Source: Verrucomicrobiota bacterium (GTDB lineage Bacteria; Verrucomicrobiota; Verrucomicrobiia; Limisphaerales; AAA164-E04). Taken from it: a stretch of DNA of 64,000 nucleotides. Position 1 is the stretch's first letter. Each line of letters starts with the position of its first letter. Below, one piece after another: positions 8,374 through 64,000 of the stretch. Made by a program: the position numbers and the translations under genes. The notes under the pieces were generated by a model. It ran no database searches and was not told the origin of the DNA. It saw only the letters and a program-made list of their open reading frames with translations. The stretch covers positions 3,936,001 through 4,000,000 of the forward strand of contig CP170459.1 in NCBI GenBank assembly GCA_047947115.1, in the 5' to 3' direction.

Positions 8374-8448
8374 TGGTGCGCGATACTGGGTTCGAACCAG
8401 TGACCCCCACAGTGTCAATGTGGTGCTCTACCACTGAGCTAACCGCGC
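8374..8448 (-). tRNA. tRNA-Val(GAC)
   Basis: Reverse complement GCGCGGTTAGCTCAGTGGTAGAGCACCACATTGACACTGTGGGGGTCACTGGTTCGAACCCAGTATCGCGCACCA forms a cloverleaf with anticodon GAC, TTCGAA T-loop and encoded CCA. Confidence 0.97.
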
Positions 8449-50346: not shown

Positions 50347-50426
50347 GACGGGTGCATTTCAATTCCTTCTAAGAATTTAATTGTGAGCCGAGAGCCATAG
50401 AAATCCTTGATTTTCTGCTCCTTCAA

Positions 50427-50592
50427 GGAATCAAGTGAGATGCGCCCAATGCGGGACTCACCCCAAACTTTCCCCTTGAAAACGTTTTTAAACAAAAGAA
50501 ATGGAACGCGGGGAGAGAGTCATTCATCGAATGACTGTGGTGTTTCCATTGTAGCTTGAAAAGGGTTTAAATGCACGAAAGTTTGAAGTGGG
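50427..50592 (-). repeat. Diverged, inverted copy of the 161-bp repeat family
   Basis: taaacaaaa..tggaacgcggg, atcgaatgactg.gg.gtttcca..gtagcttgaaa and tgaagtggg align to the reverse complement of the 63653-63812 unit. Confidence 0.75.
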
Positions 50593-50695
50593 CGCAAAGC
50601 CGAATTTGGATGTCTATTTTTGAACTGCACCCATCCTGCGACAACTGGGGTATTGCCTGTTGATTCTTACGGGATAATCGGGTTAAAATTTGCTT

Positions 50696-58885: not shown

Positions 58886-60244
58886 TCAGTTTGTTTTGGG
58901 TAAAAAGAATGTCCAAAGCGATCCGCATAGACTCATGAGGCCGAACAGAAGTACGAACCACGATGCCGGATATTTGCCTCCCAGCGAAATCAATAAACCA
59001 GCCAGGATGAGGAAGCATCCCACCAAAGTGTTGCTGATAGCGACATAGTCGGTGCGTTTATTGCCTTCAGCCAGGTTGAGCAAATAGGTTTTCCGGCCGA
59101 CCCGAACACCCGCATGTGCCACGTGTAATACCATGAAAAGAAGGGGGTAGATCCAACGCACCAGGTGATTTCCCTGAGATATGCCCCGGGTGGCCAGAAT
59201 GGAAAAGCAGACCAAGGCTGCCAATCCTGAGGCACAGCTTAAGACACGTCGACTGGATTGATCCGCCATGCGTCCCCAGACCCATCCGCTGATGGCCGCA
59301 CCTACGGCTCCCGCCATCATGAAACTTCCCAGTTGTGACATGACAAGCCCGGTGGATTGCTGGGAAATGAGCACCAGATATGGCGCCGCCAAAGCAGAGC
59401 CGGTCATGAGGCTGCGGGTGATCAGGAAATTACGGAAAGGAACATCCTTACTCAAGAGATCCCAGGTGTGGGAGGTTTGTGCCATTGCGCTTTTTGCCCG
59501 TTCAGTTTTTCCGGCTTTTTCTCGAATGCCCTGATAGCTCACAATAGCTCCCCACCACAACAGGATGGCCAGGGCGAACGGCACCAACAACCAACCTTTT
59601 GCTTCCTCACGCATCAAAAATCCAATGCCACATAAGGCGAGCAAGATCGTTATTACGCCCGAACCGGTAGTCGCCCATCCATTCACCCTGCCCCGCTGAG
59701 ATTTTGAAACGGTTTTGCCCAGGATATCCTTGCCGGTAATGGAGCACACCGCTCGGCCAAGCGAAAACACAGCCAACGCAGTCAATATGAGCCAGCCACT
59801 GGCTGCACCTTCAAAAAAGCAGGCGGAAAGCCCCATCGCTATGATGGAAAAACTTTGGATCAATGCGCCGAAAATCCAGGCAGGTTTCCGGTAAGGAAGC
59901 GATCGAATGTAACCTGCCAGAGCAAATTGGGGCAGCATGGAAAGTGATTCGCGAACAGGAACCAGTAAACCGATCAGGTATACCGGGGCGCCCACTGCTC
60001 CCATGACCCAGGGTAATACCGTCTTGGTATTGACAAACTGGTCGCCTGTTTTGGTCAACAACATGGCCACCAATTGCCGTTTGATGTTGGAAGATCCATA
60101 GGGATCATCCATTGATTGGGGCTGTCCGGTCGTTTTTGGATGGGTTGATGGAGGCATGCGCACAGATTGTCTACCTGGAAAAGGTAACAACCCGGCGATG
60201 GGGATGGCAATCCTGCATGCGACCATCAGTATGGCACAGGTCAA
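58886..60244 (-). CDS. MFS transporter
   Basis: LVPVRESLSMLPQ, WGRMADQSSR, GVRVGRKTY; about 12 TM helices; real start probably downstream of the track start. Confidence 0.85.
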   Translation of the reverse strand: MTCAILMVACRIAIPIAGLLPFPGRQSVRMPPSTHPKTTGQPQSMDDPYGSSNIKRQLVAMLLTKTGDQFVNTKTVLPWVMGAVGAPVYLIGLLVPVRESLSMLPQFALAGYIRSLPYRKPAWIFGALIQSFSIIAMGLSACFFEGAASGWLILTALAVFSLGRAVCSITGKDILGKTVSKSQRGRVNGWATTGSGVITILLALCGIGFLMREEAKGWLLVPFALAILLWWGAIVSYQGIREKAGKTERAKSAMAQTSHTWDLLSKDVPFRNFLITRSLMTGSALAAPYLVLISQQSTGLVMSQLGSFMMAGAVGAAISGWVWGRMADQSSRRVLSCASGLAALVCFSILATRGISQGNHLVRWIYPLLFMVLHVAHAGVRVGRKTYLLNLAEGNKRTDYVAISNTLVGCFLILAGLLISLGGKYPASWFVLLFGLMSLCGSLWTFFLPKTN

Positions 60245-60281
60245 AAAATAGAATCAGTATGGTAGGGGCTCCGTTTTCCCA

Positions 60282-60434
60282 CCATTTCAAACCATAGAGC
60301 ATTCGAACCATTTTAAGCAGCAATGGAAACGCCCCAGTCATTCGAATACCCCCAGCTTCCCAAGTTCCGCGTCTTTTTGCTTATGAAAGATGTGAGGAAA
60401 AAGTATGGGATCGGGGATGGAACCCGACCCTCCG
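60282..60434 (+). repeat. Diverged single copy of the 161-bp repeat family
   Basis: atggaaacgcc.cagtcattcga and aagtatgggatcgggg.tgg.acccgaccctccg are shared with the 63331-63812 units. Confidence 0.85.
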
Positions 60435-61993: not shown

Positions 61994-62336
61994 GACGGAA
62001 TTCAGTGATTACGCAAATAACAATCATCGCAACGAAACCCAACATCGCATTCCAATGCCTGTAGCTTTCAAAAACGGCGACAACTCTCTGGAGTGCGGTG
62101 AGTATCACCGCTCTGGATACCGCCCGATAAAGCAGCAGCACATGATTTCATCACGAAGCTCACTAAGTCCATCAATGGATAACCAAAATCACGTTGGATA
62201 AAAAAAGATGCTACTGAACATGAAGAGAACCAACAGTCGCAGGGACGGTATCAAGAGCTGTGTCGAGCCTCAGCACTCCAAATTTACACTTTGGGGGTAT
62301 CCATGCTGCCAAAACAAATGATCAGCTTATTCATAG

Positions 62337-63335
62337 ATGAACGCACATAAGGGACATCAGACATCCAGTTCAGATAGCTCCGAGATTATCACAGTCATTC
62401 CTGTATACAATGGAGAAAACTACTTGCAGGCCACTCTGGAGTCCATTGCGCGACAGACGAGACGGCCGGACCGACTTTTGATCATCGACGATGGATCAAC
62501 GGATGGAACAGAGGATCTGGTGCGCGCCTTTAAGGACATCCCATGCGAATGGCATCCCAACCCGCAGAATCTGGGATTATTTCCGAATCTGAACAAAGCA
62601 CTCGAGAAGGCAAATGAAGCTGAGTTTTTTCATCTGTTGCTGGCGGATGATTTGGTCGTGCCTGAATTCATTGAGACTTCCTGTCAGGCTCTTAAGGATG
62701 CCTCTCCCCTTTCATTTTCCTGGTCGGATATTCAATGGATAGATGCCGAAGGCAGGCATGCCAAAGGAACAGTCGTTGATTCAGGACGACCAGGTGCGCC
62801 ATTCAGTCAGCGAACATTTTTGACACAGGAGTCGGAGCTGCAGACGGTCAGTGTGGGATCGGTGATGATTCGAACCGGACGGCAACCCTTGCCGTGCCGT
62901 TTCCGAACCGATCTGCCTCAGGTGGCTGATTGTGTGTTCTATGGTGAGTTGGCCAGTCATGCGAAAAGTTTAATTCACATTCCCCGCCCCTTGTGTCACA
63001 TCCGCACTCATGCGACCAACATGACCAGCAAGAACATTCAAAACCTCAAAGCTTGGGTGACGGATGAATGGATTGCCATGCAGGAAACCGCTCGGCGGAT
63101 TCAGGAAGGAGCCCTTCAACGATGGTTGCGGCACCAAAAACTGAGATGTCTCTTTGCGGCCAGATCCAAAGTCAAGGAACAATGGATGGAACGGAATCAA
63201 CCCGAATACGCACAACAAATACGCAAAGCAACCCGCTCTGCCTTGCCTTTGCCACATTTTTTATTGGGTCGTATGTCTGTCGCTCTACGTGACATGATCA
63301 AAGGCCGCAACGTGGATGGACAAGGTCCGTCTTGA
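62337..63335 (+). CDS. Family 2 glycosyltransferase
   Basis: VIPVYNGE, DDGSTDGT, NLG...N.N, ADD. Confidence 0.92.
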   Translation: MNAHKGHQTSSSDSSEIITVIPVYNGENYLQATLESIARQTRRPDRLLIIDDGSTDGTEDLVRAFKDIPCEWHPNPQNLGLFPNLNKALEKANEAEFFHLLLADDLVVPEFIETSCQALKDASPLSFSWSDIQWIDAEGRHAKGTVVDSGRPGAPFSQRTFLTQESELQTVSVGSVMIRTGRQPLPCRFRTDLPQVADCVFYGELASHAKSLIHIPRPLCHIRTHATNMTSKNIQNLKAWVTDEWIAMQETARRIQEGALQRWLRHQKLRCLFAARSKVKEQWMERNQPEYAQQIRKATRSALPLPHFLLGRMSVALRDMIKGRNVDGQGPS

Positions 63336-63812
63336 TTCCACTTCAGACCTTGGTACGTCTCAAATAGATTTCACGCTGCCATGGAAACGCCGCAGTCGAT
63401 CGATTGCATCCGGCTTCCCGCGTTCCACGTTTTTGGTTTATGGAAGGTGTTAGGATGAAGTATGGGATCGGGGTGGCACCCGACCCTCCGACTTGATTCC
63501 ACTTCAGACCTTGGTACGTCTCAAATAGATTTCACGCTGCCATGGAAACGCCGCAGTCGATCGATTGCATCCGGCTTCCCGCGTTCCACGTTTTTGGTTT
63601 ATGGAAGGTGTTAGGATGAAGTATGGGATCGGGGTGGCACCCGACCCTTCGACTTGATCCCACTTCAGACCTTGGTGCGTCCCAAATAGATTTCAAGCTA
63701 CCTTGGAAACGCCGCAGTCATTCGATTGCACCGGGCTTCCCACGGTCCACGTTTTTTGTTTATGGAGGGTGTTAGGATGAAGTATGGGATCGGGGTGAAA
63801 CCCAACCCTCCG
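63331..63812 (+). repeat. Three tandem 161-bp repeats, each ending in a GC-rich hairpin
   Basis: Units start at 63331, 63492 and 63653; units 1 and 2 differ at one base; unit 3 has roughly 17 substitutions by eye and no indels. Confidence 0.97.
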
Positions 63813-63816
63813 GTTA

Positions 63817-64000
63817 TCATCCTACCCGAAATGAGATGCGCTGGATCATATCCTTGCCGAAGCAATGCTGCAGTCTTTCCAGGATTTCTTCCCGTCGGTA
63901 TCTGACTATTTCGCTCAGCCACGTGCTGTGGTCCACATTCACGAAGAGTGTCCCCTTGCGGATGCCGACGGGTTGGGCGTGTGCGGTCAGTGTGGGATCG
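63817..64000 (-). CDS. DUF721/DciA family protein, C-terminal part (runs off the window edge)
   Basis: ...HAQPVGIRKGTLFVNVDHSTWLSEIVRYRREEILERLQHCFGKDMIQRISFRVG*; not in the ORF track. Confidence 0.8.
   Translation of the reverse strand, partial: DPTLTAHAQPVGIRKGTLFVNVDHSTWLSEIVRYRREEILERLQHCFGKDMIQRISFRVG

Follow-up and report, generated by a model that had tools for sequence, protein, structure and literature searches.

REP elements as described so far carry, by definition, a GT[AG]G tag, which in E. coli is contacted by the His101 region (PMC6006769), and REPINs and BIMEs are known to form tandem arrays whose copy number varies between strains (PMC3116915, PMC3333891). REP dimers have further been reported within longer palindromes and terminal inverted repeats (TIRs), as in Anabaena GTAG-15, Halothiobacillus CGTC-1 and the TIRtrons (Di Nocera 2013, PMC3733652); for the first two of these, the text consulted mentions no unlinked target palindromes. 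GGAG has no occurrence in the main text of PMC6006769 or PMC3733652, the REPtron list of the latter and Table S1 of the former may nevertheless include GGAG-footed repeats, and a literature search covering mostly open-access papers returned no paper on a GGAG tag or on a REPIN inside a duplication-making MITE. Here we analyse a three-unit repeat array in a 64,000-nt stretch of a Verrucomicrobiota genome (the window) and conclude, with a probability of about 0.82, that it is a GGAG-tagged REPIN, likely spread originally by a RAYT transposase and likely amplified at this locus by local duplication. The family to which its units belong has the short tagged hairpins, the two inverted REPs separated by a spacer of fixed length and the high, mainly intergenic copy number of REPs and REPINs, and the repeat flanks a RAYT gene in one congener (G007), not in this genome or in a second congener (G001). 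Because the tag is GGAG, the family is a variant rather than a canonical GTAG member.

The array spans positions 63331-63813 as three head-to-tail 161-bp units (TRF period 161, 3.0 copies, score 841), a periodicity far beyond chance, between convergent genes for a GT2 glycosyltransferase (PF00535) and a DciA-like protein (PF05258), as the first-pass annotation of this DNA had described (Table 1). Its TTCAGA-N17-TAGATT hexamers, three 25-codon ORFs and GGAG-headed hairpin on the minus strand are likewise all in the sequence; what it overlooked is a second, left hairpin within the last GT2 codons, where the element starts (63314); the stop codon of GT2 is furnished by the 3' arm of this hairpin. 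As units 2 and 3 lack the 5' arm of this left hairpin, the period is here 161 bp (175 minus 14); in other arrays of the family each unit consists of the entire core and a linker of 12-22 bp, with periods of about 186-197. Units 1 and 2 are identical at 160 of 161 positions, with a single difference, and unit 3 departs from unit 1 at 18. The CTCCG found at the tandem junction is also present in the left loop of most family copies and constitutes a microhomology. Elsewhere in the window lie the cumulative GC-skew maximum of the genome (at about 52846, contig position 3988846), which likely marks the replication terminus, a SAM riboswitch (RF00162, 29544-29668) and a tRNA (8377-8448).

Table 1. 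Features of the array and its relatives, in window coordinates.
Feature	Position	Strand	Remarks
GT2 glycosyltransferase gene	62337..63335	+	PF00535; last codons and TGA stop (63333-63335) within left hairpin
Left REP of unit 1	63314..63339	+	tag GGAT and bulged hairpin; tag of G001 ortholog is GGAG
Unit 1, complete 176-bp REP doublet (REPIN-like)	63314..63489	+	left REP, ~125-bp spacer, right REP (from family alignment)
Spacer of unit 1	63340..63463	+	conserved patches CCCACTTC, ATGGAAACGC, CTTCCCGCGTTCCA, GAAGTATGGG; contains non-conserved 25-codon ORF 63381-63458
Right REP of unit 1	63464..63489	-	GGAG tag (63489-63486) and hairpin, with compensatory changes across the family
Tandem junction	63486..63495	+	right-end CTCCG fused to 3' arm of left hairpin (CTTG); CT dinucleotide at join
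Unit 2	63492..63650	+	5'-truncated, lacking left tag and 5' hairpin arm; right tag GAAG
Unit 3	63653..63811	+	5'-truncated; more diverged than unit 2
dciA, 3' part	63817..64000	-	PF05258; convergent; stop 5 bp from right end of unit 3
Dispersed relative	60232..60433	+	left TIR remnant; damaged left hairpin
Dispersed, decayed relative	50350..50632	-	both TIRs; 283 bp

Iterated nhmmer searches of the 6.08-Mb genome returned 115 matches, or 112 once opposite-strand self matches had been removed, which fall into 80 loci, 73 single and seven with tandem arrays of 2-12 units. The dispersed relatives seen at first pass thus exist, but they are not limited to two, being part of a genome-wide family of about 80 loci. 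Alignment of 85 near-full-length matches, cut to 55 (one per locus), delineates a 175-bp core that starts with GGAG and ends with CTCC, measures 174-177 bp in 33 of the 55 loci, and retains the GGAG tag at its left end in 37 and at its right end in 44. Mean pairwise identity among copies is 62%. The consensus is self-complementary at its ends and not in its middle, with a score of 94 against 31±14 (maximum 72) in 300 shuffles for the whole and 14 against 9.7±9.3 for the inner 85 bp. The top covarying column pairs of the 55-locus alignment make up the stem of the right hairpin, and in a 32-sequence alignment 86.7% of cells pair compared to 79.5% after shuffling, with 52 compensatory (both-side-change) cells versus 17, counts of a kind that relatedness inflates. 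Orientation relative to replication is unbiased (44/80, p 0.43), and a search of a plasmid collection gave two weak 27-bp matches and nothing else. Among 40 relatives a single-unit search detects the element in G001 and G007; by profile it is found in six of seven congeners, whereas 14 other genomes from the family have no match and two of 19 further genomes have weak ones.

The connection to RAYT transposases comes from G007, where the RAYT gene P0001, first seen as a weak Y1 match, scores 89.4 bits against NF047646 (cut-off 80). Within 3 kb of it lie, in coordinate order, three element copies upstream (one partial) and four in tandem downstream, homologous to the family across the spacer as well, and it is this clustering around a RAYT, in a genome with 36 matches to the element in total, that makes the element likely a REPIN. 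The profile of the P0001 clade matches PDB 4ER8 (E 1.6e-12), the clade contains the WQ...[DE]x..R tag-reading region, and GGAG hairpins flank its members widely. A RAYT profile built from six such RAYTs recovers three genes here, while G001 (88% complete) and five other congeners (75-93% complete) yield no match. All three are flanked by GTAG repeats and one has an internal stop; no GGAG-flanked RAYT emerged from this profile search in either this genome or G001. Pfam Y1_Tnp matches five genes here, none of them flanked by the element, and misses two RAYT homologs that tblastn recovers. The RAYT/TnpA(REP) gene that the first-pass annotation had proposed looking for is therefore found amid element copies in G007, and is represented in this genome only by GTAG-flanked RAYT-like genes, so that the link runs through one congener. 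Here the family appears to be an orphan, without a cognate RAYT. Among its three tentative classes for the repeat, the first-pass annotation had included a non-autonomous mobile element of the GGAG REP type, and it is this option that the tagged hairpins, the stem covariation and the RAYT neighbourhood in G007 support.

Several tyrosine transposase loci of this genome merit separate description. The RAYT at contig positions 5390600-5391700 looks intact, escapes Pfam Y1_Tnp, has GTAG REP doublets on its flanks that belong to the commonest hairpin family in the genome, and nests inside the GGAG RAYT clade, an apparent reversal. At 1507700-1508900, a RAYT with an internal stop is flanked by long GTAG doublets, the spacers of which weakly resemble that of the GGAG family (E about 0.003-0.007) and hint at shared ancestry. 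Long Y1 transposases at 774604-777927 and 1064601-1067936 are bounded by GGGGWSAS-type inverted repeats (TIRYT-like), the first being followed by a duplicated 3' half.

A second transposon shell, with inverted repeats, likely carried some copies in a more recent round of spread and gives a ~232-bp form of the element. Both TIRs bound 21 of the 91 full-length copies listed from this genome and G001, and the window array is without them. Among the best 30 of 118 matches in G001, 19 have both flanks orthologous in this genome, where 13 carry the element and six sites are empty; the empty ones correspond to 5/5 copies with both TIRs, 1/6 with one TIR and 0/8 with none, and this last count offers no example of the bare element being moved by a RAYT. 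For the five copies in G001 that have both TIRs, the flanking 9-bp direct repeats agree at 9/9, 9/9, 8/9, 8/9 and 2/9 positions, and the target occurs once in this genome, overlapping exactly over 9 bp in two cases, approximately in two and unalignably in one; the 11 TIR pairs of this genome show repeats of 9/9 in two cases, 6-7/9 in four and 5/9 or less in five. These data suggest a MITE-style spread of the ~232-bp form where no GGAG-flanked RAYT is found. Such a second route can be scored by the duplications and empty sites it leaves behind, and it bears on how REPINs spread and persist after RAYT loss. A clade of 26 cores (support 100) includes 25 that bear TIRs under a loose pattern; since two of the TIR-bearing copies form a weak group with the copy in the window (support 87-88), the latter may itself have arrived as a MITE and then lost the shell.

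Elements of 46-1883 bp between this TIR pair, many of them with a 9-bp duplication, occur in further genomes from the order, with no cargo, other cargo or a different REP doublet, and as the shell occurs elsewhere empty or otherwise filled, shell and core are separable (25 of 401 genomes matched the TIR-pair search, many of the matches being coding coincidences). One of the TIR-bounded elements holds a putatively IS110-like gene. No autonomous IS with the same TIRs was found among the multi-copy IS families of this genome. ISKra4, with GGG ends and a 9-bp duplication, was considered as autonomous partner and rejected (0/5 genomes), matches to the TIR pattern in two viral contigs and four phylum-wide proved to be unrelated sequence, and a further IS family search for the partner added nothing. 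Many other IS families are active in this genome, including 11 copies of a 1532-bp IS (e.g. contig 662038-663583) with a 465-aa frame, a weak PF00872 match and 8-bp duplications. The assembly of G001 is broken repeatedly, at contig ends, by a variant that is recent and multi-copy and combines this TIR with a different GGAG hairpin module.

Could the whole family have been a MITE from the start, the ends of its TIR-less copies having decayed and the proximity to a RAYT in G007 being incidental? The 9-bp duplications, the six empty sites, which correspond in five cases to copies with both TIRs and in the sixth to a copy with one, the TIR-like match in 47 of 73 copies from this genome and G001 (by the loose pattern), and the lack of a cognate RAYT in this genome fit such an origin. 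We nevertheless consider it improbable, as G007 combines its element matches with no match to the TIR pattern, the RAYT has seven of these copies around it, GGAG hairpins accompany the clade of that RAYT widely, and the shell is separable from the core.

With the element taken as a GGAG REPIN, the history of the locus may be outlined as follows. By analogy with E. coli TnpA_REP, the RAYT would bind the single-stranded hairpin via its tag and cut at CT. Before the lineages of this genome and G001 separated, one copy would have inserted between GT2 and dciA and would have taken over the GT2 stop codon; the array is old, as it lacks TIRs and is common to G001. In four of five other congeners searched, dciA is followed downstream by unrelated sequence that contains neither GT2 nor the element, and so gives no clean counterpart of an empty site. 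A later duplication would then have fused right end and left loop through the CTCCG that they share, giving rise to the 161-bp period, the join being made either by slipped-strand or unequal recombination at the microhomology or by RAYT strand transfer at CT; we favour the former, because no GGAG-flanked RAYT is present. Most of the recent new insertions of the family would derive from the ~232-bp form in its TIR shell, mobilized by a putative DDE-type transposase with 9-bp duplications.

A different view is that the element, whatever its origin, is a structured RNA or a DNA cis-element selected for a host function, such as mRNA-end protection or a nucleoid-protein site, and BIMEs do play such roles in E. 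coli (PMC3333891). Orthologous copies in this genome and G001 are 86.6% identical, compared to 80.7% for other intergenic DNA, 84.8% for coding sequence and 61% for four-fold sites, a level of conservation higher than a purely selfish relic requires, though the G001 loci compared are the 30 best-scoring of 118 and the apparent conservation is inflated by that choice. The spacer has conserved patches, 73 of the 80 loci lie outside long ORFs as delimited by a crude ORF caller, and an internal stem is 85% paired but with only three compensatory cells. Orientation is unbiased relative to flanking genes (15 copies on the same and 13 on the opposite strand between co-directional genes); the folding of units against shuffles is unremarkable (z -0.57 and -1.23) and does not establish one long hairpin, and Rfam has no match at 63331-63812, with four other copies likewise giving nothing at E<=1. 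Selection for a host function as the explanation of the family is accordingly quite improbable in our estimation. Of the structured-RNA option raised at first pass, what holds is the good conservation of orthologous copies in place; fold scores, Rfam and orientation lend it little support. A host role is possible as a secondary one, compatible with REPIN origin.

The headline of the first-pass annotation was that the units look like mini-genes, for which it drew a comparison with the tandem Ibs/Sib and LDR loci without regarding coding as established; on this reading every unit would encode a 25-residue, type I toxin-like peptide, and the hairpin would serve as terminator or antisense element. 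All three units do contain the ORF and the hexamers, 38 of 55 loci retain the ATG, and among the three plus frames of the ORF stretch dN/dS is lowest in the ORF frame (0.66 against 0.75 and 0.98, calculated with no transition correction). The family alignment nonetheless largely refutes this reading, which we regard as very unlikely: the ORF closes at 25 codons in one of the 55 loci, frame-breaking length changes affect the ORF stretch in 34, the ORF frame contains 41 stops in 1416 codons, and other frames reach dN/dS values of 0.67-0.72 over the spacer. Such an ORF is not beyond chance, as an ATG ORF that closes after 25 or more codons turns up in 16.6% of 2000 shuffles of one unit. The promoter and terminator are not conserved either: a -10 hexamer (at least 4/6 of TATAAT) is present in two of 55 loci, the TTCAGA taken for a -35 box is part of a sub-terminal inverted repeat, a promoter scan found no sigma-70-like site, with promoter and terminator scans at chance level, and the hairpin has no T-tract. 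The supposed conservation of a METPQ peptide reduces to a conserved DNA patch, ATGGAAACGC, without three-base periodicity. A family alignment was one of the tests by which the first pass had proposed to judge the repeat, and it shows indels and stops in the ORF stretch and covariation in the hairpin stems. Annotating the short ORFs of the array as genes would be an annotation error.

Tandem arrays are conserved within a locus, and at this site copy number varies between one-copy and tandem alleles. Environmental contigs from runs X9, X16 and X15, with loose ends at 63655, carry the one-copy allele, made up of the GT2 end, an intact GGAG left hairpin and unit 3, and an 86-nt contig bridges the tandem junction (unit end to unit-3 start) in three of four runs (X1, X3, X8), one run possibly relating to the source sample. 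Since no contig among those listed from the environmental runs bridges the junction of units 1 and 2, unit 2 may be strain-private or an assembly duplication; the count of three units is that of the assembly, in which at most unit 2 may be doubtful. The near-identity of the units affects contig placement and accounts for the lack of contig cover at 63491-63595. Position 63317 is T in the window and G, giving a GGAG left tag, in contigs of all four runs of one set, with C in one run of another set; at 63649 contigs read C, unlike the window, and 62290 is a one-base homopolymer indel relative to contigs. These three window letters are either strain-private changes or consensus errors. In G001 both contigs break inside the element at the orthologous locus, with the left GGAG intact, and orthologous sites of two other arrays hold 7 versus 1 and 4 versus 1 copies in this genome and G001, respectively, a contrast to which short-read collapse may contribute. 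Metatranscriptome contigs cover the array locus, as sequences that carry neither strand nor level. That the tandem arrangement is an assembly artefact of one copy has a negligible chance of being right, for although units 1 and 2 are nearly identical, their junction is unbridged by any listed contig and the window differs from all covering contigs at 62290 (the indel) and 63649, unit 3 diverges at its 18 positions, the 86-nt contig spans the tandem junction and the G001 contigs break within the element.

The tag itself may be read by a small part of the RAYT protein. Across 91 RAYT loci scanned, 34 were called GGAG-flanked, 30 GTAG-flanked and 27 left uncalled because bulged hairpins escape the automatic tag caller, which also made two weak GTAG calls at non-His loci. 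The residue aligned with E. coli His101 is Thr (20), Arg (11), Lys (1), His (1) or a gap (1) at GGAG-called loci, and His (27), Arg (1), Cys (1) or Asn (1) at GTAG-called ones, with a comparable division in a separate tally. As a quick tree of the RAYTs needs two tag changes, this correlation amounts to about two independent events and not to 60. The second change is the telling one, since in a nested clade, judged by eye, His and GTAG occur with the same hairpin that sister clades carry with GGAG. Together, the GGAG and GTAG clades and the reversal on an unchanged hairpin afford a direct point-mutation test at the His101 position and bear on the open question of how RAYTs read their tag.

These observations can be assembled into a broader account, to which we give even odds. 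The REPIN would have changed vehicles: a GGAG doublet bred by a Y1 RAYT would have been captured by a lineage-wide MITE shell with GGGCGCAGTTCA ends and 9-bp duplications, the same shell that carries a different REP doublet in another family, and would have kept spreading by DDE-type transposition after the RAYT was lost. The RAYT code forms the other half of this account, in which the residue at the His101 position, with a neighbour, would read tag position 2, one nested clade reverting to His and GTAG on the same hairpin.

Set beside the REPINs of Pseudomonas fluorescens SBW25 (Bertels and Rainey 2011, PMC3116915), the family shares two inverted tagged hairpins at a fixed spacing, dispersed singles together with tandem near-identical units, and a largest cluster that adjoins a RAYT, here in G007; it differs in its GGAG rather than GTAG tag, a longer spacer of ~125 bp whose middle is not self-complementary, copies that are on average only 62% identical, and the lack of a cognate RAYT among the genes found in this genome. 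Like E. coli BIME-2 with TnpA_REP (Ton-Hoang 2012, PMC3333891; Messing 2012, PMC3479197), it has tandem copies conserved in a locus but variable in number, and a RAYT clade that matches 4ER8 and contains the WQ...[DE]x..R region, whereas the aligned counterpart of His101 is Thr or Arg in most GGAG-flanked RAYTs and half of the left hairpin is missing from units 2 and 3. As in Anabaena GTAG-15 and Halothiobacillus CGTC-1 (PMC3733652), the REP doublet regularly lies within an outer inverted repeat, which is here, unlike there, associated with 9-bp target duplications, empty orthologous sites and other or no cargo. The TIRs differ from those of TIRYTs in that they do not match the GGGGWSAS consensus exactly and no tyrosine transposase was found between them. 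The ~232-bp form resembles the bacterial MITEs ERIC, NEMIS, RUP and Nezha (PMC3733652) in falling within 70-300 bp and in having TIRs, no coding capacity and a target duplication; it departs from them in that a REP doublet belonging to a RAYT system makes up its interior, TIRs are absent from the window array, and none of the IS families searched proved to be the autonomous partner. In itself the window array is nothing out of the ordinary, a mobile repeat amplified locally; the family to which it belongs matters modestly for two open REPIN questions, namely spread and persistence without a RAYT, and the reading of the tag.
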